A stretch of DNA of 53,292 nucleotides from Chloroflexota bacterium (GTDB lineage: Bacteria > Chloroflexota > Dehalococcoidia > SM23-28-2 > RBG-16-64-32), in the NCBI GenBank assembly GCA_005882715.1, contig VBEI01000002.1, forward strand, positions 1-53,292, read 5' to 3'. Positions within the stretch are counted from its first letter, which is position 1. Each line of letters begins with the position of its first letter. The position numbers were made by a program, and so were the translations under genes. Below are positions 1,838-45,442 of this stretch, in pieces. The notes beneath the pieces are model-generated. The model saw only the letters and a list, made by a program, of their open reading frames with translations, did not search any database and had not been told where the DNA came from.

Positions 1838-2904
1838 TGGCAACTGAAGGAACCTTCGTCCTCGCGGATATCGGCGGCTATACCGGGTTTCTGACCGGCG
1901 TCGGCATCGAGCACGGTAAGGAGATCACGAGCCATCTCCTGAATTCGCTGCTCAAGCGCAACCGGGGCCGCTGGAAGCTGGCGAATATCGAGGGGGACTG
2001 CTTGTTCCTGTACCGCGAAGGCCGCGAGCCAGCCGAGGAGCTCCTGGGCCACGTGCGGACGCTGTACGAAGACTTCTGCGACCGCACGCTCGACATTGCG
2101 GAGCGCGCTTCGTGTCCGTGCGGCGCCTGCTCGCGAACGAGCGAGCTATCGCTGAAGTTCATCGTGCACGCGGGGCAATTTGACACGCAGAAGATCGGGG
2201 ACCGCGTGGAGCTGATCGGGCCCGATGTCGTAGTGATTCACCGGCTGCTCAAGAACAGCGTGGCGCAGAATGAGTACGCGTTGCTCACCGAGAGCTATAC
2301 GCTCGGCGTCACGCCGGACGGCCTGCCCGCAGCGAAGGGCGGGGACGAGGCCCAAGGGGTCGGGCAGGTGTCGTGGGTGGCGCTCGACCTGGCGCCACTG
2401 CGAGCGGACCTCGAGTCTCGGCGGCAGGTGTTCATAGACGAAGGGAGCGCAAAGCTGGCTATCACGACGGAGATCGACGCTACACCAGACGCCGTCTTCG
2501 ACGCAATCATGGACACTGAAAAGCGGGCGCAGTGGCAGCGCTCGATCAAGAGCATCAAGGTGATGGAGGGGAAGCGCGGCGAGATCGGTGAGGTGCATCG
2601 CTGCATCCACAACAACGGCGCGAAGATGATCCACGTCAACGTTGGCATCGACCGCGAGAACCGGCGGCGCACCGAGAAGATCTGGGCCAGCCGCCTGCTG
2701 AGGGACGTCTACGTCACGACTGAAGTGCGGCCTCTGCCGAACGGACGCACGCAGGCGGGATTCCTCGCGACGTACAAGCCGGCGATACCGGTCGTCTCGC
2801 ACGTCGCTGTGCCGGTGTTCAAGATGGTGATGAAGCGGCAGGTGGGGAACGACATGGCCGGGCTGAAGGAGTTCTGCGAGGTGAGGGCTGCGGTTGGCAG
2901 CTAA
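1837..2904 (+). CDS. DUF2652-like (nucleotidyl-cyclase-fold) domain fused to a C-terminal SRPBCC/START-like domain
   Basis: N-terminus FVLADIGGYTGFL..LANIEGDCLFLY..CPCGAC..KFIVHAGQF. C-terminal about 150 aa has a polyketide-cyclase/SRPBCC-like pattern. Confidence 0.6.
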   Translation: MATEGTFVLADIGGYTGFLTGVGIEHGKEITSHLLNSLLKRNRGRWKLANIEGDCLFLYREGREPAEELLGHVRTLYEDFCDRTLDIAERASCPCGACSRTSELSLKFIVHAGQFDTQKIGDRVELIGPDVVVIHRLLKNSVAQNEYALLTESYTLGVTPDGLPAAKGGDEAQGVGQVSWVALDLAPLRADLESRRQVFIDEGSAKLAITTEIDATPDAVFDAIMDTEKRAQWQRSIKSIKVMEGKRGEIGEVHRCIHNNGAKMIHVNVGIDRENRRRTEKIWASRLLRDVYVTTEVRPLPNGRTQAGFLATYKPAIPVVSHVAVPVFKMVMKRQVGNDMAGLKEFCEVRAAVGS

Positions 2905-3745
2905 AACCGTTCTCGTCATCGTCGCGCATGCGGACGACATGGAGTTTATGGCGGGCGGGACGATCGCGAAGATGGCGGAGCTCGGTTACTCGATTCGCGA
3001 GGTGATAGCGACCAACAATGAGCGAGGGACCCTTCGAGTAGCCTCAGGACAGGCGCTGGAGCCGGACTGGAGCGCGGCGTTCACGGCGGACGCCAGGCGG
3101 GAAGAGGCGCGGCGTGGAGCGAAGGTGCTGGGCGTCGATCCGGAGATCCAGTTCCTCGGCTACGAGGACGGGCGACTTAGCGAGACGACGCTTAACGAGC
3201 TGCGGGAGCAGTGCATGAGGGCGATACGATGGCATAAGCCGGACGTGCTCTTCACGTGGGACCCGCACGCGCCGTACGAGGACCACCAGGACCACCGGGC
3301 GGTAGCCTGGGCAGCGACCGAGGCAGCGATGTTCGCGCACTTCCCGCTCTACCACCCGGAGCACGGCGACGAGGGCCTCGAGCCGCACTATGTTGGCGAG
3401 CGCTACTTCTTCGCGAAGTCGCCCCGCGACGCCGATAAGACTGTCGATATCAGCGATTACATCGAGCGCAAGATCGAGGCACTGTGCGAGCACGTCTGTC
3501 AGATGGAGATGACGGTGGCGGATCTGCAGGTGCAGCTCGCGGCTTCGGGACTGGACATCCCTCTCCTGAGCGAGGCGAGCCCGAAGGAGTTCCGGCCGGT
3601 GATCGAGACGCAGATCAAGGCGTGGGCGGCGTCCGTGGGGCGGCGCGCGGGGTTCGCCTACGGCGAGGAGTTCCGGCGGGTGCGGTTCAGCGGCATCGAG
3701 CGCTGGGCGCGGGGATCCGAGGCCGCTCTTCGCGACGAGCTTTAG
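2894..3745 (+). CDS. PIG-L/LmbE-family N-acetylglucosaminyl deacetylase
   Basis: VLVIVAHADDMEFMAGGTIAK and HQDHRAV motifs. TTG start overlaps the upstream gene by 11 nt. Confidence 0.8.
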   Translation: MAAKTVLVIVAHADDMEFMAGGTIAKMAELGYSIREVIATNNERGTLRVASGQALEPDWSAAFTADARREEARRGAKVLGVDPEIQFLGYEDGRLSETTLNELREQCMRAIRWHKPDVLFTWDPHAPYEDHQDHRAVAWAATEAAMFAHFPLYHPEHGDEGLEPHYVGERYFFAKSPRDADKTVDISDYIERKIEALCEHVCQMEMTVADLQVQLAASGLDIPLLSEASPKEFRPVIETQIKAWAASVGRRAGFAYGEEFRRVRFSGIERWARGSEAALRDEL

Positions 3746-3754
3746 GCGGGTAAT

Positions 3755-4093
3755 TCAGGACCGGCTGTGCTGAGCGACGCTCGTGACCGGTTCAGCGCCG
3801 GCATCCAGCAGGTAGCCAATGCCCTGTACGGTCTTGATCAGCGCCGGGCCGGAGGACGCCGGTTCCAGCTTGGAACGCAGGCGGGACATCCAGACTCGCA
3901 AGTAGGGCAGCTCGCCTCGGTACGACGCACCCCAAACATTCGTCAGCATCTGTTCGGAGGAGACTGCACGGCCGGGCTTGGCGGCAAGTTCGCGCAGCAA
4001 GAGGCGTTCCTTGCGCGTCAGAGGCAGTCTTTCACCCTGACGGCTGGCCTCGCCACTCTTTGTGTCGATCTGAAGCCCGTTAACGCGAAGCAA
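3755..4093 (-). CDS. Stand-alone OmpR/PhoB-type winged-helix DNA-binding protein (no receiver domain)
   Basis: LPLTRKERLLLRELAAKPGRAVSSEQMLTNVWG..YLRVWMSRLRSKLE..IKTVQGIGYLL. Proposed TTG start at 4093 lies 2 nt after the upstream stop, with GAGG upstream. The longer ORF to 4174 overlaps the upstream gene. Confidence 0.75.
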   Translation of the reverse strand: MLRVNGLQIDTKSGEASRQGERLPLTRKERLLLRELAAKPGRAVSSEQMLTNVWGASYRGELPYLRVWMSRLRSKLEPASSGPALIKTVQGIGYLLDAGAEPVTSVAQHSRS

Positions 4094-4095
4094 GG

Positions 4096-4680
4096 TTATA
4101 CCGCCTCGTCCGCGGGCTTCTTCCCGTAGAACAAGGCGCGCGCCATGTTGATGATGAGGAGCGGCTCGCGCCACACCTGGGCTCTGCCCTTGTCCGCGGT
4201 CACCGTTACATCCGTGAACGGCACGAAGTGATGGTCTGCAACGATAGGCACCATTTTAGGGTCCGCATCGGGCATCAGGTGCAGATGGCCTGTGGCCTCG
4301 TAACCGGGCAGCACGACTGTTGAAGGCACGCGCTTCTTCCGCACAATCTCGAACGGATCTGGTTTGTGCAGCTCTCCTCGGGGAATCGCGAACAGGATGC
4401 CGCTGCGGTCCAGCTGGATGACATCGAACTTGTGGGTCTCAGCTTCCGGGTTCAGCGGATCGTCGAGCGTGCCGGAGTTCATTATGAAATAGGTCATGTC
4501 ATTTGAGTTCAGAATGTCGACTAAGCGGCGCGGCACACCGGGCGCGAAAAGCTCGCCGTTCACTCGGAAGCTGTCCATTACAATCTCGACAATGACGCCG
4601 GTTGCCGTTGGCGCCTCAGGCTCGCGCGGCGCCTCGAGATTAGGTTGGGCATCGACGGGCTGCTCGGTGTCTATTTCCAC
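4096..4680 (-). CDS. Hypothetical protein with two tandem modules of about 70 aa; no recognised family
   Basis: 194-aa ORF packed between the HD-GYP gene (stop 4682) and the wHTH gene (start 4093). By eye it has an acidic/Pro N-terminal tail followed by two similar hydrophobic-pattern modules. Confidence 0.7.
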   Translation of the reverse strand: MEIDTEQPVDAQPNLEAPREPEAPTATGVIVEIVMDSFRVNGELFAPGVPRRLVDILNSNDMTYFIMNSGTLDDPLNPEAETHKFDVIQLDRSGILFAIPRGELHKPDPFEIVRKKRVPSTVVLPGYEATGHLHLMPDADPKMVPIVADHHFVPFTDVTVTADKGRAQVWREPLLIINMARALFYGKKPADEAV

Positions 4681-4681
4681 A

Positions 4682-5518
4682 TCACACCTCGGAGGCTACC
4701 CGCGATTCCCTATCGTCGAGCCTTCCCCCGTTTTCGCGGCCTTCGCCGAAGAGGCCTCGCCTCTCCGCCTCGGCCAGCGCCCGCACGACGGCCGGATCGA
4801 ACTGAGTCCCCGCGTGGCGCAGGATCTCTTGCATGGCGTCCTCGTGCGTGCGCGTCTTGCGGTACGGCCGCTTCGACGTCATCGCGACGTAGGCGTCTAG
4901 CACGGACAGGATACGAGCCGCGATTGGTATCTTCTCGCCCGATACGCCGCGGGGATAGCCTTGACCGTCATACCGCTCGTGGTGACAGCGTACTACTTCC
5001 GCCAGCTCGCGAAAGAAGGTGACCTCGCTGAGCATGCGGTAGCCGATCTCGGGATGCCGCTTCATTTCTTCCCAGTCTTGCTCCGTGAAGTCCTCTTCCT
5101 TCAGCAGCACCGACTCAGCGACTCCCCTCTTCCCAACGTCCCGCAACGCTGCCGCCTGGTCCACGACGGCGGCCTGCTCAGTCGGGATCCTCATCTGCCG
5201 CACTAGAATCGAGGCCAGACGCGAAAGCCTCTCCAGCTCACGGTCTCTCACCGTGTCGCGCATGCCAAGCGCTCCGCATAGCCGCTCGATAATAGCGTTC
5301 GTGTTAGCGCGCGACGCTTCAAGTTCGGCCTTGACCGAGGTCGCCTCTTTGCGATTGTTGCCCACGATCCGCCAAACGGACAGCCACATGATCAGGACCA
5401 GGACTACGATCGCCGTCGTCGCGCTCGCAACCATGGCAACTAACGATAAGGCCAGAGCCGTCGCCAGCGAAGCGCCGCTGAGGATCAGTATTCGGCGTAG
5501 TGTTGCGTTCTTAGACAT
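4682..5518 (-). CDS. Membrane-anchored HD-GYP-domain protein with degenerate metal-binding residues (RD-GYP)
   Basis: HHERYDGQGYPRG present. The HD dyad position reads ALRDVGK (R126-D127). N-terminal hydrophobic segments. GGAGGGGAG RBS before the ATG at 5518. Confidence 0.85.
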   Translation of the reverse strand: MSKNATLRRILILSGASLATALALSLVAMVASATTAIVVLVLIMWLSVWRIVGNNRKEATSVKAELEASRANTNAIIERLCGALGMRDTVRDRELERLSRLASILVRQMRIPTEQAAVVDQAAALRDVGKRGVAESVLLKEEDFTEQDWEEMKRHPEIGYRMLSEVTFFRELAEVVRCHHERYDGQGYPRGVSGEKIPIAARILSVLDAYVAMTSKRPYRKTRTHEDAMQEILRHAGTQFDPAVVRALAEAERRGLFGEGRENGGRLDDRESRVASEV

Positions 5519-5533
5519 TCTCCCCTCCGGTGC

Positions 5534-6415
5534 CTAATTTCCCAGAACGTAATCGTCGATCAACGCGCCCGTATCGTCCGGTTCCTGCTTTAGCTCGGGT
5601 CCGTTCGGAAGACGACGCGACATCTTGTTGGCGTACATATCGGCATCCGCCCAGTGCAACATCTCGTCCAGGCTATCGCCGCCCCAGGGATAGCCAGCTA
5701 CGCCGATCGAAACTGTTACCATCAGTTCCGTTTTGCTGTCCTGGTACATCGGGCTCCGTTCCATCTCTTCCCACAGGCGTCGCGCCAGCGCAAAAGCGCC
5801 CCGCTTGTCCGTTCCCGGCATTACTACGCCGAACTCGTCGCCGCCCAGCCGTGCCGCCACATCCGTCCCCCGGATGTGCTTCGATATGATCGCGGCGAGG
5901 TTCGTGATGACGATGTCTCCTACGCCATGACCAAACTCGTCGTTGATACCTTTGAGGCCGTCGAGGTCCATCAGAAGAATCGCCAGGGTGTCGCGCCGCT
6001 GCTGCGCGCGCGTCAACTCTTCCTCCGCCACTTCGTAGAAATGACGGCGGTTATTGAGGCCGGTCATCTCGTCACGAGACGCCATCTCCTTCAGCTCGGA
6101 CACTCGCATCAGCAGTTGGCCCTGATGGCGCCGCAGGAGCAAAACCTGCATCTTGAAGAGGACGAGGCTGGAAAACAGCCCGTATGCTAGCGGAACTCCG
6201 CCGAGCGCCAAATACACTGGATACTGCCAACCGTTAGTTGCAGACATCAGCAGCGGGAATAGGATTGCCGCCGTGACAATCGTGACTGCGACGCCTCCGA
6301 CCCATGCGACGCGACGGATCATCGACTCTTCGCGGGTGAGTCTCTCCTCGTCAAGTATTGGCTTGTGTTGCGCCACTGAACCGTTCATACAGTCCCGTTC
6401 CTGGGTGCTGCCCAC
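5534..6415 (-). CDS. Membrane-anchored diguanylate cyclase (GGDEF domain with I-site)
   Basis: LLMDLDGLKGINDEFGHGVGD and RGTDVAARLGGDEFGV (RxxD five residues before GGDEF). N-terminal TM segments. Confidence 0.9.
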   Translation of the reverse strand: MGSTQERDCMNGSVAQHKPILDEERLTREESMIRRVAWVGGVAVTIVTAAILFPLLMSATNGWQYPVYLALGGVPLAYGLFSSLVLFKMQVLLLRRHQGQLLMRVSELKEMASRDEMTGLNNRRHFYEVAEEELTRAQQRRDTLAILLMDLDGLKGINDEFGHGVGDIVITNLAAIISKHIRGTDVAARLGGDEFGVVMPGTDKRGAFALARRLWEEMERSPMYQDSKTELMVTVSIGVAGYPWGGDSLDEMLHWADADMYANKMSRRLPNGPELKQEPDDTGALIDDYVLGN

Positions 6416-6497
6416 ATAGGCACCTGAAGTGCCTTCTTTCGCCCACTGAGTAAGACGCCGCCTCCAGTAGCGAGTTACATAAGTAGCGGGTGTGCGG

Positions 6498-7673
6498 CTA
6501 GTTGAAATGTTCGCCGCGCGTGTAGACCAGCCGCCCGGCCACCCAGGTCATGGCAACGTTCAGGTCGCTGTCCAGGGCAACGAGGTCGGCGTCATAGCCG
6601 GGCACGATGCGGCCTTTCCGCTCGGACAGACCAAGAACTCGTGCTGGAACTGTTGATGCCATACGGACCGCGTCGGTCAGGCCGGCAACGCCCCATTCGA
6701 CTACGTTGCGGACGATACGGTCCATCGTGGACGCCCCTCCGGCAATCGTTCCGTCCGGAAGCAATACCCTACCGGCAGTAAGGCGTGCCTTTTCACTCCC
6801 GAGCTGAAACACGCCTGAATCCAGGCCCGCCGGCGCGACGGCATCGCTTACCAGCGTAATACGGTCGGTTCCAACCGCGCGCCGTATACTCCTCACCGTG
6901 GCCGGGTGGAGGTGGACGCCGTCCGCGATGAGCTCCAGCGTAACGTTCGGCGAGTCGATGGCGGCGAGCACCGGGCCCGGATCGCGATGGTGAAAAGGAC
7001 GCATGCCGTTGAACGCGTGCGTGACGTGCGACGCGCCGCCCTCAAAGGCCCCGAGAGCCTCTTCGTATGTAGCGTCCGTGTGACCGATAGCGACTACGAT
7101 CCGGTCCTGATGTGCGATTTGTAACAGTCTTCCCGCATTAGGGATTTCGGGCGCCAGAGTCGTCAGCTTAATGGAGCCCTCGCTCGCGTTGGAGAGTGCA
7201 GCCAGCTCCACCGGATTGGGCGCTCGCACCCATGACTCCGGCAGCGCGCCCCGGCGCTGAGGGTTGACGAACGGACCCTCTAGGTTAATTCCGAGAATTT
7301 CGGCGGCGCCTTCGTGCCGCTGGTCCGACACGTATCCTGCTGCGCCTACGAACGCCAGCGCTTCGTCAAAGTCAGAGGCGAACACCGTTGCCAAAAAGCC
7401 AGTGACACCTCGTGAGATAACCCAACGAGCGTACGACTCGATTTCGGAAGAATCTTCCGTCGCCAGCGAGAAGCCGCCCCCGCCGTGAACGTGCAGGTCA
7501 ATGAAGCCCGGCGCCAACGTCAGCCCGCGTCCCTCGGTGATTTCGGCGCTCGGTGGCGGTTCCGCGTCGGAGCCCACAGCAGTGATGCGACCGGCGCCGT
7601 CGAAGACCACTGTCCCCGTTTCCATGCTCTCTTCGGGAGTTAGAATGCGGGCCCCGCGGATAACGCCGCTCAT
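6498..7673 (-). CDS. nagA: N-acetylglucosamine-6-phosphate deacetylase
   Basis: GFIDLHVHGGGGFS, GINLEGPF and HTDATYEE amidohydrolase motifs; 391 aa. Confidence 0.85.
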   Translation of the reverse strand: MSGVIRGARILTPEESMETGTVVFDGAGRITAVGSDAEPPPSAEITEGRGLTLAPGFIDLHVHGGGGFSLATEDSSEIESYARWVISRGVTGFLATVFASDFDEALAFVGAAGYVSDQRHEGAAEILGINLEGPFVNPQRRGALPESWVRAPNPVELAALSNASEGSIKLTTLAPEIPNAGRLLQIAHQDRIVVAIGHTDATYEEALGAFEGGASHVTHAFNGMRPFHHRDPGPVLAAIDSPNVTLELIADGVHLHPATVRSIRRAVGTDRITLVSDAVAPAGLDSGVFQLGSEKARLTAGRVLLPDGTIAGGASTMDRIVRNVVEWGVAGLTDAVRMASTVPARVLGLSERKGRIVPGYDADLVALDSDLNVAMTWVAGRLVYTRGEHFN

Positions 7674-7764: not shown

Positions 7765-8643
7765 ATGTTGAACAAGCTCCTCGCACCCCTCGACGGCACC
7801 CCACTCGCAGAAGCAGGCCTCCTCTGGGCGGAGAAGGCGGCTCAGCGCTCCGGCGCCTCTGTGCACCTGCTTACGGTCGTCGATCCTTCGCTGAGCGATT
7901 TCGAGACTCACTACAAGCAGGCCGAGGCCTACCTGCAGTCCCGGCGCGACCAGCTGAAGAACAAAGGGCTGACCGTGAAGATGGAAGTTGCCGCGGGCGA
8001 GCCTGCCCAGACAATCCTCGAGCGAGCTGAGAACGTCGACCTAACTGTCGTCAGCTCTGGCACAGTGCGCTGGCTCATCAGTGCCGTCCTCGACCGCGTT
8101 CTGGAGAAGATGACGAGGCCGATCGTCGTCGTGCGCGCCTCAGCCATTCAGCCGGCCGTCCCCGAGCTTGACAGGATTCTCGTCGCGGTAGACCGCTCCG
8201 ATTACTCGGGAGACATACTGCCCGTCATCCAGGGCCTCGCGAAAGCATTCCAGGCTTCGGTCACCGTCTGCCACGCGGTTCCGCCGTTGACGGATAACTA
8301 CGGACGACAGACGCAGACGCACGCCACCAGTGCCGCGGCCTCGATACACGAGGCTAACCTCTTCGTCGCGCGTGCGGCCAAGAGGTTGCAGGACGAAGGA
8401 ATAGAGGTCGAGACCATCGTGGCCGTCGGCGATCCGCCCGGACAGATCGTGAATGCGGCCCAGAAAAGCCGCGCCGGGCTCATAGCTCTTACAACCCGCG
8501 GCCGCGACCACCTCGATAGCCGCCTCGTCGGCAGCACGGCCAATGCCGTTCTCCATTCGACGCGACTGCCCTGCCTCCTCACACGCCGCGCTCCTCTCAG
8601 CGCCGGTTTCGGGGGCGCGCGCTCCCGCATCACTTCACGCTGA
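7765..8643 (+). CDS. Tandem universal stress protein (2 x UspA domain)
   Basis: Two repeats of the Usp pattern (LLAPLDGT.., ILVAVDRSDYS.., LIALTTRGR..VGSTANAVL). Confidence 0.75.
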   Translation: MLNKLLAPLDGTPLAEAGLLWAEKAAQRSGASVHLLTVVDPSLSDFETHYKQAEAYLQSRRDQLKNKGLTVKMEVAAGEPAQTILERAENVDLTVVSSGTVRWLISAVLDRVLEKMTRPIVVVRASAIQPAVPELDRILVAVDRSDYSGDILPVIQGLAKAFQASVTVCHAVPPLTDNYGRQTQTHATSAAASIHEANLFVARAAKRLQDEGIEVETIVAVGDPPGQIVNAAQKSRAGLIALTTRGRDHLDSRLVGSTANAVLHSTRLPCLLTRRAPLSAGFGGARSRITSR

Positions 8644-8699: not shown

Positions 8700-10190
8700 G
8701 TGGTCGGGGTATCAGCGGGGGCCAAGAATTTGGAAGAAACGGTCCGCATTGAGGGCCACTTAACGGCGGAGCAGGTAAGGCGGAACCCCTACTTCTACCT
8801 CCCCTTCAACGTCCCCAATAACGCCTCCGGCATTCACGTCTCATACGGCTATTCGGATCCCGTGACGGCGTCGTTCGGCAACGGTCCGGGCAACGTCGTC
8901 GATATCGGCATCTTCGACTCGCGCGGATACGATTTTCCGCAGCCGGCGGGCTTCCGCGGCTGGAGCGGCGCCTCCCGGCCGGAGTTCTTCCTCGCGCCGG
9001 AAGACGCGACCCCCGGCTACATCCGCGGCCACCTATTTCCCGGCGAGTGGCACATCATGCTCGGCGTCGACCGCGTCGAGCCGGAGGGTGTCCGTTATGA
9101 CGTCTCAGTGACGGTCGAACAGGAGTCAGGAGCCGGGAATCAGGAGCCAGGAGGGACGCCCCGTTCCGCTCGTCCTGAGGTATCGAAGGAACGAGTGGGG
9201 TACAGCACCCCGAAGACGAATGGCGCCCGCTGGCTGAAGGGCGACCTGCACTGCCACACGGTCCACTCGGATGGCCTCAACTCCGTCGAGGAGATCGTCC
9301 GTAACGCCGTCGAGCTGGGCCTCGACTTCCTCGCGGTAACAGACCACAACACGAGCACACACTTCGAGGAGCTGGAGCGACTCTCCGACCTCCCGATCAC
9401 CCTCATCCCGAGCGAAGAGGTCACGACTTACTGGGGCCACGCCAACATGTGGGGCTTGCGCGAGTGGATTGACTTCCGCTGCGCGGACCAGGCATCGATC
9501 GACGGGGTCCGGCGATACGTGCTCCAGAAGGGCGGTCTCATCTCTATGAACCACCCGAAGTCCGTCGGTCCGCCCTGGTTCTTCCGCGGCTGGGAGGGCT
9601 ATCCCTCGATGGAGGTGTGGCAGGCGCCCTGGCGCTTCTACAACTGGGAGTCTCTCGAGCGCTGGGACTCGCTTCTCCGCAAGGGCGAGCGCGTCGTCGC
9701 CGTCGGCGGCTCAGATGTGCACTCGATCCCGCCCGCTGAGCCGCGCCACCCGCACGGCCTCGCCAACCCGACCACTTGGGTGTACGCGGAGTCCTCCGAA
9801 TCGTCGATTCTCGACGCCATCCGAGCGGGCCATGTCTTCATCACCGATGGCCCGAACGACACGCGCCTCGTGCTGAGCGCAGACGCGGACGGCGACAGGC
9901 GCTTCGAGAGCCTCATGGGCGACACGATCTCGCCGCTTGATGGCCGCCTAGTCCGCTTTCGTGTCGAAGTGAACGGCGGCATGGACCGCCGCCTCTGGCT
10001 CATTGCCGACGGTGTCCCAGTCGACATCCGCTCACTCGAAAAGGTCGAAACGACGCACGAGTTCTCGCTCGACGTTTCGGGCTACCGCTACATCCGCGCC
10101 GAGCTGCGTGGCCCCCGCGGCCGCCCGGAGCGCGGCGAGGTCATCTGGGCCATGACCAACCCGATATGGATAGCGAACAGCGAACGGTGA
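8700..10190 (+). CDS. PHP-domain metallohydrolase (CehA/McbA-like)
   Basis: LKGDLHCHTVHSDGLNSVEEIV..LDFLAVTDHNT..GGSDVHS. An alternative TTG start near 8730 is possible. Confidence 0.75.
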   Translation: MVGVSAGAKNLEETVRIEGHLTAEQVRRNPYFYLPFNVPNNASGIHVSYGYSDPVTASFGNGPGNVVDIGIFDSRGYDFPQPAGFRGWSGASRPEFFLAPEDATPGYIRGHLFPGEWHIMLGVDRVEPEGVRYDVSVTVEQESGAGNQEPGGTPRSARPEVSKERVGYSTPKTNGARWLKGDLHCHTVHSDGLNSVEEIVRNAVELGLDFLAVTDHNTSTHFEELERLSDLPITLIPSEEVTTYWGHANMWGLREWIDFRCADQASIDGVRRYVLQKGGLISMNHPKSVGPPWFFRGWEGYPSMEVWQAPWRFYNWESLERWDSLLRKGERVVAVGGSDVHSIPPAEPRHPHGLANPTTWVYAESSESSILDAIRAGHVFITDGPNDTRLVLSADADGDRRFESLMGDTISPLDGRLVRFRVEVNGGMDRRLWLIADGVPVDIRSLEKVETTHEFSLDVSGYRYIRAELRGPRGRPERGEVIWAMTNPIWIANSER

Positions 10191-15625: not shown

Positions 15626-17008
15626 TTACGCCCGGCGCGTCTCGCCGTCGCCTGGAATCGGCAGCTCGACCACGAAAGTCGTTCCATTGGTCGGCTCGCT
15701 CACCACCGATACCGTTCCCCCGTGCGCTTCCGCCACATACTTGACGATAGCTAGCCCCAACCCTGTCCCGGCTGGCCGGCTCGCCCGCGCGGACTCGCCC
15801 CGATAAAAACGCTCGAACACATGCGCTATCTCATCCGCTTTAATCCCCTGACCGGTGTCCCTTACCTCCAGCTGCACCCGGCCGTTAAACCGCTGAAGCC
15901 CAAACACCACCCTCCCTTCTCGCGGTGTGTACTGGACGGCGTTGTCCAACAGGTTGCCGACCATCTGGTCCAGCCGCTCCCCATCGCCGAGCACCACAAT
16001 GCCGGGTTCGATCTCCTCCCTCAGCTCGTGTGAGTCTTCCTGCTTGACCCGCGCCAGCGCCCGTTCACAAACCGCACTGAAATCGACTCGCGCCCGTTCG
16101 ATCGACTGCGACTCCTCTCGTGCCAGCATGAGAAGATCCGCGACTAGTCTCCTCATAATTTGCGCCTCCACCCTGACTTCCGCGACGCAGCGTTCTCGGT
16201 CGGCCTGCGAGAGATTGGGCCGGCTCAATATATCGACGTTCGTCTGGAGGACCGACAGCGGCCGACGCAGTTCGTGGGACGAATCGGCCAAAAAAGACTT
16301 CTGGTGCGCCAGCGTCTGCTCCACCCGCTCGATCATCGCGTTAAACGCGCTGACCAGCTCGCGCACCTCGCCCTCGCCCGCGCTCTTGTCGAGCCTGCGC
16401 GTGAAGTCGGCCGTCTCCTCAATGTCTCTCGCCATCTGTGAGACGTTCCGCACCGGTCGTAGCGCCCTGCCGGACAGCGTGTATCCCGATACTGCAGTCA
16501 CCAAAAGCGCGGCCAGACCCCCGACAACGATGACATCTCGGATCTCACTGACTGCCCCGTTCGCGCCGCTGAGAGACTCTCCGACCTCGATTGAACCACC
16601 TGTCGGCAGCGGCTGGTACAAGATACGGGTGTCCTCGCCCCGCACGTCTTTCGTTGCGAATCCCCCCACCAACGACCGCGTATCGTCGGGCGGCGGCAGG
16701 CTGCCGCTGGGCGGCTGGGCGGAGGAGTAGAGCACAGTGCCATCCGCGCGCCGCAACTGGAATACTAGGTCCGCCTTCGAAGCTAGGGCGTCGAGTTCGC
16801 CTTTGTTGTTTTCAATGTCCTCTTGGTTAAATTCAGTACCAATCGGCTCCAGCGCCAGGGCCACAGCCTGGGCCCGCAGAGTCAGGCTGTCGTCCAGGCC
16901 TGCATAAATCCTGTGCGCCGCGATCACGTAGCCGGTGATACCCGTGACCGCCAGTGCGGCCGCCAACAGCCCGACGTATAGGAGCGTGAGGCGCAGCCGC
17001 AGAGTCAC
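15626..17008 (-). CDS. Sensor histidine kinase (TM-HAMP-HisKA-HATPase_c)
   Basis: SFLADSSHELRRPL H-box, NLLDNAVQYT N-box, DTGQGI and GTGLGLAIV G-boxes. Confidence 0.9.
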   Translation of the reverse strand: MTLRLRLTLLYVGLLAAALAVTGITGYVIAAHRIYAGLDDSLTLRAQAVALALEPIGTEFNQEDIENNKGELDALASKADLVFQLRRADGTVLYSSAQPPSGSLPPPDDTRSLVGGFATKDVRGEDTRILYQPLPTGGSIEVGESLSGANGAVSEIRDVIVVGGLAALLVTAVSGYTLSGRALRPVRNVSQMARDIEETADFTRRLDKSAGEGEVRELVSAFNAMIERVEQTLAHQKSFLADSSHELRRPLSVLQTNVDILSRPNLSQADRERCVAEVRVEAQIMRRLVADLLMLAREESQSIERARVDFSAVCERALARVKQEDSHELREEIEPGIVVLGDGERLDQMVGNLLDNAVQYTPREGRVVFGLQRFNGRVQLEVRDTGQGIKADEIAHVFERFYRGESARASRPAGTGLGLAIVKYVAEAHGGTVSVVSEPTNGTTFVVELPIPGDGETRRA

Positions 17009-17010
17009 AA

Positions 17011-17751
17011 CTAAGGCTCCTTCAGGACGTAGCCGACTCCCCTCACCGTGTGGATCAGGCGCGGTTTGTCGCCGCTCTCGAGTTTCAGACGTAGGTTCGC
17101 AATGTGCGCATCGATCACATTGGACTCCACCTTCGCGTCCTCACCCCACACGGCGTTCAGTATGTCCTCGCGTGTTAAGACCCGCCCCGGGTTCTCGAGG
17201 AACTGTTTCAGGAGCCGGAACTCCTTCGCCGTCGTTGGCAGCGCCTCACCGCCGCGGTACACCGTCCAAGTTGCCGTATCAAGTGCCACATCGCCGAAGG
17301 AGAGACGGCCCTCCGCCGGCGCCGGCGTGGTAGATCGCCTGAGCAGAGCCTGAATCCGCGCGATAAGTTCGTCCAGAGCGCACGGCTTGATCAGGTAATC
17401 GTCCGCCCCCATCTGTAGCCCTGCGACGCGGTCCGGGACGCTATCGAGCGCCGTCAACATCAGGATGCGTACTGGGGAGCGTTCGCGCACCAGCCGGCAG
17501 AGACTCAGCCCGTCCAGTCCCGGCATCATGATATCCAGCACCATTACGTCCGGCCAGCCGCTCTCCACGCACGTCAGCGCCTGCCCCGCCTCCTTCGCGA
17601 TCGTTACGTCGAACCCGCTCAAAGACAGGCCACGCCGCAGTGCGTCCAGCAGACGCGCGTCGTCGTCGACTAAGAGTATTCGCGGCTGGCTCTTGCTGCC
17701 GTTCTGTCCGAATTCTTCGCTTACCATGACTTCGGCCCGGCTCTCTTTCAT
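17011..17751 (-). CDS. OmpR-family response regulator
   Basis: ILLVDDD..VMVLDIMMPGLDG..LTA receiver plus LTTAKEFRLLKQFL..VRGVGYVL wHTH. The start may be the internal ATG at 17727. Confidence 0.9.
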   Translation of the reverse strand: MKESRAEVMVSEEFGQNGSKSQPRILLVDDDARLLDALRRGLSLSGFDVTIAKEAGQALTCVESGWPDVMVLDIMMPGLDGLSLCRLVRERSPVRILMLTALDSVPDRVAGLQMGADDYLIKPCALDELIARIQALLRRSTTPAPAEGRLSFGDVALDTATWTVYRGGEALPTTAKEFRLLKQFLENPGRVLTREDILNAVWGEDAKVESNVIDAHIANLRLKLESGDKPRLIHTVRGVGYVLKEP

Positions 17752-43628: not shown

Positions 43629-43671
43629 GTTAAGATGCGGTAAATTGCTAATCGGTTAAGATGCGGTAAAT
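43629..43671 (+). repeat. Perfect 17-bp direct repeat GTTAAGATGCGGTAAAT x2 (26-bp period) just upstream of the ECF sigma gene
   Basis: Copies at 43629-43645 and 43655-43671, separated by tgctaatcg. They lie 24 nt before the GTG at 43695. Confidence 0.9.
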
Positions 43672-43694
43672 GACCATCAAACCTGGGGGATCTG

Positions 43695-44327
43695 GTGACA
43701 ACGCGGGACGAACAAATGCGGCATCAATTGGTCTCCCCGGCTGGGGTCTATCCTCCGGCTCGAATGGAGGGCATTGCTGAAGAAGAACTCGCTCGACTGC
43801 TGAAAGAGCGTTCAATAGCGGCCTGGGAATTCTTGTTCGAGCGGCATTTCGATCGGGTCTATCGGTATGCCCTTGGCCGCTTATTCTGCCGAGAAGCAGC
43901 TGAGGACGTTGCTGCTGCAACTTTTGACCGGGCATTGGCCCTGATAGACGGCTACTCATACCGCGGGCGGCCCGCACTCGCCTGGCTCTACGGAATCGCG
44001 CGTAATGTCGTGAAGGAATCGCGGCGCAATGACGTTCGCCAGCAAGGCGCGGGACTGCTCAGGGGGTTGCATCCCCATCGTAACGGTCACCGCACAGACC
44101 ACGTGATCCCGCTGAACCATATGGATAGCGCTGACGCCGCCGTATCCCGGATCGACCTGACTCGTGCGATTGCCAGGCTTACGGAGATCCAGCGTGAAGT
44201 GGTGCTTCTCCGATACTTCGCCGGCCTTTCGGCAAGTGAGACCGGCCGCGTAATCGACCGCCCCGAGACGGCTGTCTACGCGCTGCAGGCGCGCGCGCTG
44301 GCGGCGCTGCGGCGGCAACTCACCTAA
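43695..44327 (+). CDS. ECF-type RNA polymerase sigma-70 family factor
   Basis: Region 2 is FERHFDRVYRYALGRL..WLYGIARNVV. Region 4 is LTEIQREVVLLRYFAGLSASETGRVIDRPETAVYALQARAL. Confidence 0.85.
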   Translation: MTTRDEQMRHQLVSPAGVYPPARMEGIAEEELARLLKERSIAAWEFLFERHFDRVYRYALGRLFCREAAEDVAAATFDRALALIDGYSYRGRPALAWLYGIARNVVKESRRNDVRQQGAGLLRGLHPHRNGHRTDHVIPLNHMDSADAAVSRIDLTRAIARLTEIQREVVLLRYFAGLSASETGRVIDRPETAVYALQARALAALRRQLT

Positions 44328-44368
44328 CAACAAATAGAAGAATCTAACTAATTGCCCGTCTGATCTGC

Positions 44369-45442
44369 TTGTCGCGCGGTCATAAGCCATCGAATCGCCC
44401 AGAGGGAGACAGCCAACTGAACGCCCAGCAGCGCGACATCCTTATTGCCTGCCTTCGACGAGTCGAGCAAGGAGACCGCCTCGACTCGGTCCTCCGCGCC
44501 TACCCGAAGGAAACGCGCTGGCTACGAGAGCATATAGCGATTTCAAGGGCGCTCTATATCGTGGGCGAATCGTCTCCCATCAACAAAGAGCGGGCACGCG
44601 AACGCATCTTGAGTACCGTCGCTCATTCAACGGCCCCTTCTGCCATTTCAAGCCGCCGTCAATTTATCTTCGCCGTCGCGCAGGCCGCGTTGATAACGGT
44701 CGGCGTTCTGGTCCTGATGGTGGGTGCAGCCGCCGCGGCTGGCGTCGACCTTAGCTCAGTTCCGAGACATGTTGTTGACACTCTGGCCGAGCCGCTGCCG
44801 CTATCAGCCCAGAGCCTAGAGAACTCGGGCGCGCGTAAGCCGGGAGAGGGAGAGCCTCGCGCCGCTTCTGGCGGTAGCGATCGCGAGGTTGCTCGGTCGG
44901 CTGGGGGACCCGCCATCGAGGGCGATCTTTCAACCCTTACGAGTACCGGCTCTCGTGAGGTCGATCCCAATGATACTAACTCGCTGGCGCAAGGCGGTCA
45001 GCCCAGCCGGACGAATCCACCTGCCAGCGACACACCCGACGGCAACTCGCCTGGTAACGGCGGCCATCCCGGGGGCGAAAACCAAGAGGGCAACCATGGC
45101 AATCAGCCGGGCACGACTGGCCCACGAGATCAAAACCCGAGCCATAGTGGCCAACCCGGCAGCGACGGACACAACGATTCCAACTGCCCCGGCAATCAAG
45201 GAGTTAGCAATCAGCAGGGCCAAACCGACTCGAATGGCAACGGGTCGAACGGCGATAAGCCGAACGGCTCGAGTGGCGACGCATCGAATGGCTCGAACGG
45301 CGGTGGGTCGAACGGCGGTGGGCCGACGCTCTCGACGGGCGACGCACCGAATGGCTCGAACGGCGGCGCGTCGAGCGGCGCGAATAGCAACGCGGCGAAT
45401 GAGGCGTCCACCGACCATTCACTCATATTCACTCTCTATTAA
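44369..45442 (+). CDS. Putative anti-sigma factor: single TM, with a long G/N/S/P/D-rich low-complexity C-terminal region
   Basis: Lies directly downstream of the ECF sigma gene. TM is FIFAVAQAALITVGVLVLMVGAAAAAG. The start codon is uncertain. Confidence 0.55.
   Translation: MSRGHKPSNRPEGDSQLNAQQRDILIACLRRVEQGDRLDSVLRAYPKETRWLREHIAISRALYIVGESSPINKERARERILSTVAHSTAPSAISSRRQFIFAVAQAALITVGVLVLMVGAAAAAGVDLSSVPRHVVDTLAEPLPLSAQSLENSGARKPGEGEPRAASGGSDREVARSAGGPAIEGDLSTLTSTGSREVDPNDTNSLAQGGQPSRTNPPASDTPDGNSPGNGGHPGGENQEGNHGNQPGTTGPRDQNPSHSGQPGSDGHNDSNCPGNQGVSNQQGQTDSNGNGSNGDKPNGSSGDASNGSNGGGSNGGGPTLSTGDAPNGSNGGASSGANSNAANEASTDHSLIFTLY

Follow-up and report, generated by a model that had tools for sequence, protein, structure and literature searches.

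We analyzed a 53,292-nucleotide (nt) stretch of DNA from a bacterium of the phylum Chloroflexota (GenBank assembly GCA_005882715.1, contig VBEI01000002.1, positions 1 to 53,292 of the forward strand; the whole stretch is termed the window herein), with a focus on a compact operon for cyclic di-GMP (c-di-GMP) signaling at positions 3755 to 6415. The operon comprises four minus-strand genes, encoding, in this order, a GGDEF-type diguanylate cyclase, an HD-GYP protein, a 194-amino-acid (aa) protein related to the DUF6812 family, and an OmpR-type winged helix-turn-helix (wHTH) protein that has no receiver domain. An initial annotation of this DNA, made from the sequence alone, had described the four genes as packed with intergenic gaps of 15, 1, and 2 nt; the open reading frame (ORF) calls confirmed this spacing, and a Shine-Dalgarno-like sequence was found ahead of every start. 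The features of the operon are as follows.

5534 to 6415, minus strand: GGDEF gene (longest ORF, with a GTG start; the ATG at 6388, giving a protein of 284 aa, is the more likely start)
4682 to 5518, minus strand: HD-GYP gene, with an HD_5 domain (ORF call and Pfam)
4096 to 4680, minus strand: gene for the 194-aa DUF6812-family protein (ORF call; sub-threshold match to PF20660)
3755 to 4093, minus strand: wHTH gene, with a Trans_reg_C domain (TTG start, 112 aa)
6451 to 6479, minus strand: promoter-like motif TGTAAC-N16-CGTCTTA, conserved across orthologous upstream regions
5239 to 5237, minus strand: E94 of the HD-GYP protein, at the position of H189 of PmGH (from structure-sequence alignments)
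5143 to 5138, minus strand: R126-D127 of the HD-GYP protein, at the position of the HD dyad, which reads LRDVGK ("RD-GYP")
4530 to 4507, minus strand: R51-R52-L-V-D55-I-L-N58 of the 194-aa protein, the family hallmark (from the family alignment)

The start codon of the GGDEF gene is more likely the ATG at position 6388, which is kept in all orthologues, than the GTG at 6415, which is not; the 284-aa form is also the choice of gene callers on other sequences. For the wHTH gene, the longest ORF extends to position 4174 and would overlap the preceding gene for the 194-aa protein. Both enzymes are predicted to be membrane anchored without a sizeable extracytoplasmic domain, and the 194-aa protein and the wHTH protein are predicted to be soluble. 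None of the four proteins matched the PADLOC models of antiphage defense systems.

The cyclase and the HD-GYP protein

The first gene is predicted to encode a membrane-anchored diguanylate cyclase with intact active-site and inhibitory-site (I-site) motifs, as the initial annotation had proposed. The protein matches PF00990 with 139.4 bits (cutoff, 23.8; E value, 1.1e-40) and TIGR00254 with 160.6 bits (cutoff, 37.4; E value, 2.6e-47). The GGDEF motif is formed by residues 191 to 195 (nt 5845 to 5831), and the I-site R182-G-T-D185 (nt 5872 to 5861) lies five residues ahead of it; the DxD region is D150-L-D152. Two hydrophobic segments are found at the N terminus, and the hydrophobic anchors of the two enzymes reach Kyte-Doolittle values over 19 residues of 2.3 and 2.6.

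The second protein was expected to be a membrane HD-GYP protein, and both its domain and its anchor were found: it matches PF13487 (HD_5) with 121.9 bits (cutoff, 27.2; E value, 3e-35) and starts with a hydrophobic N terminus of 47 residues, predicted to form a two-helix membrane anchor, whose transmembrane segments are highly conserved among the orthologues. The expectation did not extend to its active site, in which the HD dyad is replaced by RD. To read the metal ligands, the protein was aligned with PmGH (4mcw), PA4781 (4r8z), and V-cGAP3 (5z7c). Three ligands of PmGH are replaced, E185 by V90, H189 by E94, and H221 by R126, so that the full ligand set (H189, H221, D222, H250, H276, H277, and D305) is not present in the window protein. 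Retained are the equivalents of PmGH D222, H250, H276/H277, D305, and K225 and the block HHERYDGQGYP, and the ligands of the G and M sites are intact. E94 and R126 are fixed in all aligned orthologues, which share 63 to 98% identity. In PmGH, phosphodiesterase activity is lost with either of the substitutions H189A and H221A, and the residue at E185 varies in nature; RpfG likewise has no H189 ligand (PMC4159591). Because the H-site ligands are lost, the window protein is probably a poor or inactive phosphodiesterase.

HD-GYP proteins with altered active-site motifs and a retained fold, as seen here, have been described: Shewanella HnoD and Pectobacterium ECA3548 are inactive and act through protein-protein interaction or c-di-GMP binding and not through hydrolysis (10.1101/2021.11.05.467447). 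The window protein differs from these in the nature of its changes (E in place of H and RD in place of HD, next to unchanged HHE and GYP motifs) and in its two-helix membrane anchor, whereas the known inactive HD-GYP proteins have REC or PilZ partner domains.

Gene order and promoter motif

The conservation of the operon was studied at 53 orthologue-type loci from metagenomes and metagenome-assembled genomes (MAGs), in which the 194-aa protein shares 47 to 98% identity with that of the window, and at three deeper loci that were added from gene tables or DNA (P0203, 42% identity; P0204, 38%; and L061, 47%). Presence was counted only at loci with enough flanking sequence on the relevant side. 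Close relatives were found only in MAGs of uncultured soil Chloroflexi and Dehalococcoidia and in soil metagenomes. The HD-GYP gene lies directly upstream of the gene for the 194-aa protein at 43 of 43 loci, and a GGDEF gene lies upstream of the HD-GYP gene at 31 of 31. This linkage of the three genes (the triad) spans identities of the 194-aa protein from 38 to 98%, while the flanking genes vary, with an FBPase gene downstream in one lineage and a PIG-L gene elsewhere, and with a cation-efflux gene upstream in one lineage and an amidohydrolase gene elsewhere. The four-gene arrangement is far beyond chance, and the suggestion of a conserved and tightly coupled set of genes was thereby borne out. 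One further relative, P0054 (243 aa, on a 58.5-kb ENA contig), matches over its first ∼70 to 95 residues only and continues as a stretch rich in Arg and Pro, apparently because of a frameshift in the gene call or an error in the assembly of its contig.

The wHTH gene is less constant than the triad. It directly follows the gene for the 194-aa protein at 35 of 40 loci (22 of 26 distinct sequences), so that co-occurrence was complete for the two enzyme genes and only partial for the regulator. It is missing beside the triad at L009/L010, L048, L052, and P0029 and in all deep outgroups (L061, P0203, and P0204). In a neighbor-joining tree of the 194-aa protein, which carries no support values, L009, L048, L052, and P0029 form one clade nested within the wHTH-bearing loci, suggesting one gain and one loss of the wHTH gene as the simplest history. 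Because the triad persists without the wHTH gene both in a nested subclade and in the outgroups, relay to DNA through the wHTH protein cannot be the core function of the operon. The conserved unit is the GGDEF–HD-GYP–DUF6812 triad, and the wHTH gene is an accessory fourth member. Sequence identities for the cyclase, the HD-GYP protein, the 194-aa protein, and the wHTH protein are 99.7, 98, 92, and 92% at L005 and 81, 69, 64, and 67% at L004, respectively; the cyclase is thus the most conserved of the four, followed by the HD-GYP protein and then by the 194-aa and wHTH proteins, which are about equal.

The promoter-like motif sits in the 82-nt gap between the upstream amidohydrolase gene and the GGDEF gene, ∼60 nt upstream of the ATG at 6388, and can also be written as TGTAACT-N15-GCGTCTTACT (6479 to 6451, minus strand). 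It was found at each of the 31 loci whose upstream sequence was long enough and has a single match in the whole window. Among 13 diverse orthologous upstream regions, which include lineages without the wHTH gene, TGTAACT and CGTCTTACT are invariant, and the spacer between the two halves of the motif varies in sequence at a fixed length of 16 nt; the upstream region of the outgroup L071 reads TGCAAC-N17-CGTC. Two other explanations for this conservation were rejected. The first is an RNA element or riboswitch: RNAalifold returned no consensus structure for the motif region, an Rfam scan of the window gave no match, and short GC inverted repeats in the spacer change register between lineages. 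The second is an operator for the wHTH protein: the motif is equally invariant in the lineages L009, L049, and L061, which lack that protein. We read the motif as a promoter because RNA structure and Rfam matches are missing and because the spacer repeats shift register. Envelope-stress promoters of the extracytoplasmic function (ECF) type, such as those of Bacillus subtilis sigmaM, sigmaX, and sigmaW, follow a comparable pattern of a −35 region with AAC and a −10 region with CGTCT. Targets of Streptomyces coelicolor sigmaE have the form xxxAAC-N17-CGTCTT, for example GGCAAC-N17-CGTCTT (PMC6767563), and share with the window motif a −35 region ending in AAC, a spacer of 16 to 17 nt, and a −10 region CGTCT(T). 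On this evidence, the operon carries its own conserved ECF-sigma-type motif as a putative promoter and probably owes its induction to an ECF sigma factor that responds to envelope stress.

The window itself encodes an ECF sigma factor and a putative anti-sigma factor.

43695 to 44327, plus strand: ECF sigma gene
44369 to 45442, plus strand: putative anti-sigma gene (357 aa, a single transmembrane segment, and a long low-complexity tail rich in Gly, Asn, and Ser)

The 357-aa protein has no Pfam match. This pair (43695 to 45442) was considered as the cognate regulator of the operon and rejected: no matching autoregulatory promoter was found upstream of it, and a partial TGTAAT...CTTAC in that region is wrongly spaced and is not shared by L001. 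That no cognate sigma factor was found counts against the model favored below. The pair is followed by genes for a UDP-glucose dehydrogenase and a large glycosyltransferase, in the same order as in L001 (6785 to 8484); in L001, the sigma gene is preceded, at a distance of ∼1.8 kb, by a gene for a DUF6812 paralogue. Just upstream of the window sigma gene (43629 to 43675, plus strand), the 17-nt direct repeat GTTAAGATGCGGTAAAT occurs twice with a period of 27 nt; ahead of the homologous sigma gene of L001 and L002, there is one related copy, CGGTTAAGATTTCGTAAAC. The repeat may represent a −10 region that was duplicated or, alternatively, an operator.

The DUF6812 protein and the wHTH protein

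The initial annotation had placed the 194-aa protein in no recognized family; it is functionally uncharacterized, as stated, but is assigned here from profile comparisons as a sub-threshold member of DUF6812 (PF20660), itself a family without known function and not a well-characterized one. The single sequence scores 24.1 bits against PF20660, below the cutoff of 27.1 (E value, 3.5e-5; residues 150 to 179 only). A search of 1.8 billion proteins with a profile of its clade yielded 266 representatives (clustered at 50%), most of them full length with 170 to 230 aa, and 77 of 80 sampled representatives match DUF6812 (best E value, 3e-17) in full-length two-domain alignments. The window protein has the RRLxDxLN motif and the two-barrel architecture in common with the family. 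The pattern of the first half is G...RRLxDxLN, with R52 invariant and D55 and N58 nearly so; in the second half, K115, G131, F152, and T156 are conserved. The two halves are homologous to each other (hhalign probability, 96.9%; E value, 1.9e-10).

An AlphaFold2 (AF2) model from a 52-sequence alignment (predicted local distance difference test [pLDDT] score, 78.6; predicted template modeling score, 0.72; five models concordant) has an acidic disordered N terminus of ∼27 residues followed by two small beta-barrels. Almost all Foldseek matches of this model in the PDB are Sm or LSm proteins (best, 4emg_A, with a template modeling score of 0.73 and a root mean square deviation of 2.5 Å), and these matches are weak (E values of ∼4e-3, with the length of one domain aligned and a model of pLDDT 78.6 as the query). 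Sequence searches of the PDB, by single sequence or by profile, gave no relative, and NCBIfam gave no match. Pfam searches to an E value of 10 found no PilZ, MshEN, or other known receptor domain, and the PilZ motifs RxxxR and (D/N)xSxxG are absent from the sequence. The literature search returned no paper that mentions DUF6812, no solved structure for the family, and no account of a pathway of this kind, in line with the view that the operon does not belong to a described one.

Among DUF6812 subfamilies, only the window clade is linked to GGDEF and HD-GYP genes. A distant DUF6812 gene (17 to 28% identity; L015, L018, L074, and L077) recurs in a neighborhood of the order methyltransferase, DUF6812, OsmC, in some cases REC, and Ku, to which a WYL regulator, an ATP-dependent DNA ligase, and LEA-like genes are sometimes added; this points to a setting of stress or dormancy for the wider family.

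The wHTH protein was correctly described as an OmpR-type DNA-binding domain without a receiver. Residues 20 to 96 match PF00486 with 74.1 bits (E value, 9.6e-21) and cover the whole Pfam model; beyond the domain, there is a tail of 16 residues, with no other domain and no sensor, and Pfam gave no Response_reg match. The 24 orthologues found all have 92 to 139 aa and Trans_reg_C as their sole match. The best NCBIfam matches are to MtrA, RpaB, and YycF, and the alignments cover nothing but the C-terminal DNA-binding part of each. A canonical OmpR-type pair lies 11 kb from the operon (15626 to 17751, minus strand) and consists of a HAMP-HisKA-HATPase kinase and a REC-Trans_reg_C regulator; unlike the wHTH protein, this regulator (17011 to 17751) has both the receiver and the Trans_reg_C domain. 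Two origins of the bare domain were considered and rejected: a recent duplication of this regulator, since the similarity is only distant (E value, 1.5e-15), and a frameshift or read-through fusion with the DUF6812 gene, since the two reading frames do not keep a constant relation (gaps of 2 nt in the window, of 3 nt at L004, and apparently of more at some loci, as judged from tblastn coordinates). OmpR-type wHTH domains are used without phospho-acceptor control in proteins of the ToxR/CadC and SARP/AfsR/EmbR types, which carry domains of their own (transmembrane and periplasmic, BTAD, and FHA), whereas the window protein is a bare 112 aa. Any input to such a bare DNA-binding domain must therefore act in trans or by way of the level at which it is expressed.

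Candidate mechanisms and significance

Judged by known c-di-GMP designs, the operon is a plausible signaling module that contains an uncharacterized candidate effector family. We tentatively favor the reading that it is a self-contained, membrane-anchored module for local c-di-GMP signaling, in which the DUF6812 protein serves as adaptor or effector and the wHTH protein is gated in trans. An ECF sigma factor responding to envelope stress would induce the operon, and the cyclase would make c-di-GMP locally. The crippled HD-GYP protein would not degrade c-di-GMP efficiently and would act as a c-di-GMP sensor or as a scaffold touching the cyclase, through a contact modeled on RpfG in which its GYP motif meets the DxD motif of the cyclase. 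The DUF6812 protein would read the state of this pair, and its invariant RRLxD motif, which is RxxD-like, may bind c-di-GMP. In the wHTH-bearing subclade, the DUF6812 protein or the complex would gate the wHTH protein by protein-protein contact and thereby produce an output at the level of transcription; where the wHTH gene is missing, the output would go to other targets.

We favor this model because synteny is invariant and HD-GYP, DUF6812, and wHTH genes are spaced by 1 to 2 nt, because the cyclase motifs are intact and the losses in the HD-GYP protein are conserved at ligands that are essential in PmGH, and because inactive HD-GYP proteins are known to work by binding c-di-GMP or by contacting other proteins. 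Both motifs on which the contact between RpfG and GGDEF proteins depends, GYP and DxD, are present, the transmembrane segments of the HD-GYP protein are conserved, the ECF-type motif is invariant, and the wHTH protein has no sensor of its own. A stronger form of the model, which we consider unlikely, is that the double Sm-like barrel of DUF6812 constitutes a new class of c-di-GMP receptor or adaptor; in the window clade, it would sit on the membrane pair of cyclase and HD-GYP protein and release or sequester the bare OmpR-type wHTH protein in a c-di-GMP-dependent manner.

Gating of a transcription protein by direct contact with a c-di-GMP effector occurs in Streptomyces, where RsiG acts on sigmaWhiG. 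The closest analogue of the favored model is the complex of RpfG (HD-GYP), a GGDEF protein (XC_0249 or XC_0420), and a PilZ protein (XC_2249) in Xanthomonas campestris (PMC3749722), in which an HD-GYP protein and an active GGDEF cyclase are likewise joined by a small beta-barrel adaptor to a target. The contact motifs of that complex, GYP in the HD-GYP protein and DxD in the GGDEF protein, are both found in the window proteins, and RpfG shares with the window HD-GYP protein the loss of the ligand at PmGH H189 (PMC4159591). The window system differs in that it is encoded in one operon, that both enzymes are membrane anchored and without REC, and that the HD dyad is lost; its adaptor would be the Sm-like DUF6812 protein instead of PilZ, and its candidate target is the wHTH protein, whereas the RpfG system targets pilus ATPases. 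Compared with the RpfG complex, the window complex is hypothetical. The same concept, in which an enzyme or effector gates a transcription protein by contact, is found in LchP-Clp of Lysobacter (PMC6182147) and in the trigger phosphodiesterases (PMC5052742). These systems and RsiG-sigmaWhiG belong to protein families other than those of the window, for which gating is hypothetical.

Only slightly less likely than the favored model is plain coexpression of the genes, with no relay dedicated to c-di-GMP. In that case, the cyclase and a still partly active, binuclear HD-GYP protein would set the c-di-GMP level for effectors encoded elsewhere, and the DUF6812 and wHTH proteins would merely be coinduced in a stress regulon, with the wHTH protein binding DNA constitutively and its activity set by its abundance. 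Several observations are in line with this explanation, and some of them weigh against the favored model. The triad manages without the wHTH gene, and the strong conserved promoter could alone supply the regulatory input. Relatives of DUF6812 exist apart from c-di-GMP genes: a paralogue subfamily with 37 to 41% identity is solitary at 11 of 11 loci, MAG CF_23 has such a solitary paralogue, without c-di-GMP neighbors, beside its operon copy, and distant subfamilies adjoin methyltransferase, OsmC, Ku, WYL, and stand-alone REC genes, which shows that the family as a whole is not dedicated to c-di-GMP. As to the enzyme, the HD-GYP proteins of the outgroups L061 and L071 keep the HD dyad, with S or A at the position of PmGH H189, so that phosphodiesterase activity may be ancestral; in the RD form, residual binuclear activity is possible, considering the intact G- and M-site ligands, the natural variability of PmGH E185, and the lack of H189 in RpfG (PMC4159591). 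Against coexpression alone stands the fact that DUF6812 stays linked to both enzymes without exception over deep divergence, at a spacing of 1 to 2 nt, while coregulation usually preserves less. Furthermore, H221A kills the activity of PmGH (PMC4159591), and Arg at this position is fixed across the clade.

Another explanation, which we regard as quite unlikely, makes DUF6812 an Sm- or Hfq-like RNA-binding protein with a posttranscriptional output, with or without control by c-di-GMP, and the wHTH gene an unrelated add-on. As far as the predicted model goes, the Sm-like fold suggests RNA binding at least as well as nucleotide binding, a further point against the favored model: nearly all of the top 50 Foldseek matches are Sm or LSm proteins, the small barrel is duplicated in tandem, and the family is widespread in varied contexts. 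The weak E values (∼4e-3) argue the other way, as does the layout of the AF2 model, in which the RRLxD helix lies between strands 2 and 3 and departs from the canonical Sm order; no Sm1 or Sm2 motifs were identified, and no RNA element was found nearby (no Rfam match and no conserved structure). That the receiverless wHTH protein is itself the direct c-di-GMP receptor, with another role for DUF6812, is very improbable: we know of no OmpR-type DNA-binding domain that acts as a c-di-GMP receptor, no known c-di-GMP-binding motif was seen in the protein, and it is missing from many triad-bearing lineages, even though it has no other input domain, is located in a c-di-GMP operon, and many unrelated transcription factor folds bind c-di-GMP (reviewed in PMC10519070).

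The genes around the operon are rich in functions of sugar and envelope metabolism, with genes for a GH38 mannosidase, PGM, and PGI nearby. On the plus strand, a gene for a protein with DUF2652 and Polyketide_cyc2 (SRPBCC) domains (1837 to 2904) and a gene for a PIG-L/LmbE-type deacetylase (2894 to 3745) are convergent neighbors of the triad at most loci, among them those of the outgroups L061 and P0204. The N terminus of the DUF2652 protein, FVLADIGGYTGFL, resembles the metal-binding motif of class III nucleotidyl cyclases, and the protein has no sequence relative in the PDB; its gene could be a second nucleotide-signaling gene beside the operon. On the other side, a NagA-like amidohydrolase gene (6498 to 7673, minus strand) lies directly upstream of the operon on the same strand, followed by genes for a tandem-Usp protein (7765 to 8643, plus strand) and a PHP-domain protein (8700 to 10190, plus strand); these three are syntenic with the triad at most loci.

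The significance of these findings is bounded by the narrow taxonomic range of the operon. Within it, the favored model would give the first functional context for DUF6812, a family of 266 clusters (50% identity) that has neither a literature nor a solved structure, and would extend the short list of noncatalytic HD-GYP domains by an "RD-GYP" form that is fixed in nature. It would tie c-di-GMP signaling in the poorly studied soil Chloroflexi to an ECF-type (envelope-stress) promoter motif, as a chain from input to output, and would show how an OmpR-type DNA-binding domain is used without a receiver. If DUF6812 does gate the wHTH protein, the operon would represent a phosphorylation-independent output of the OmpR family and a new route from c-di-GMP to transcription.

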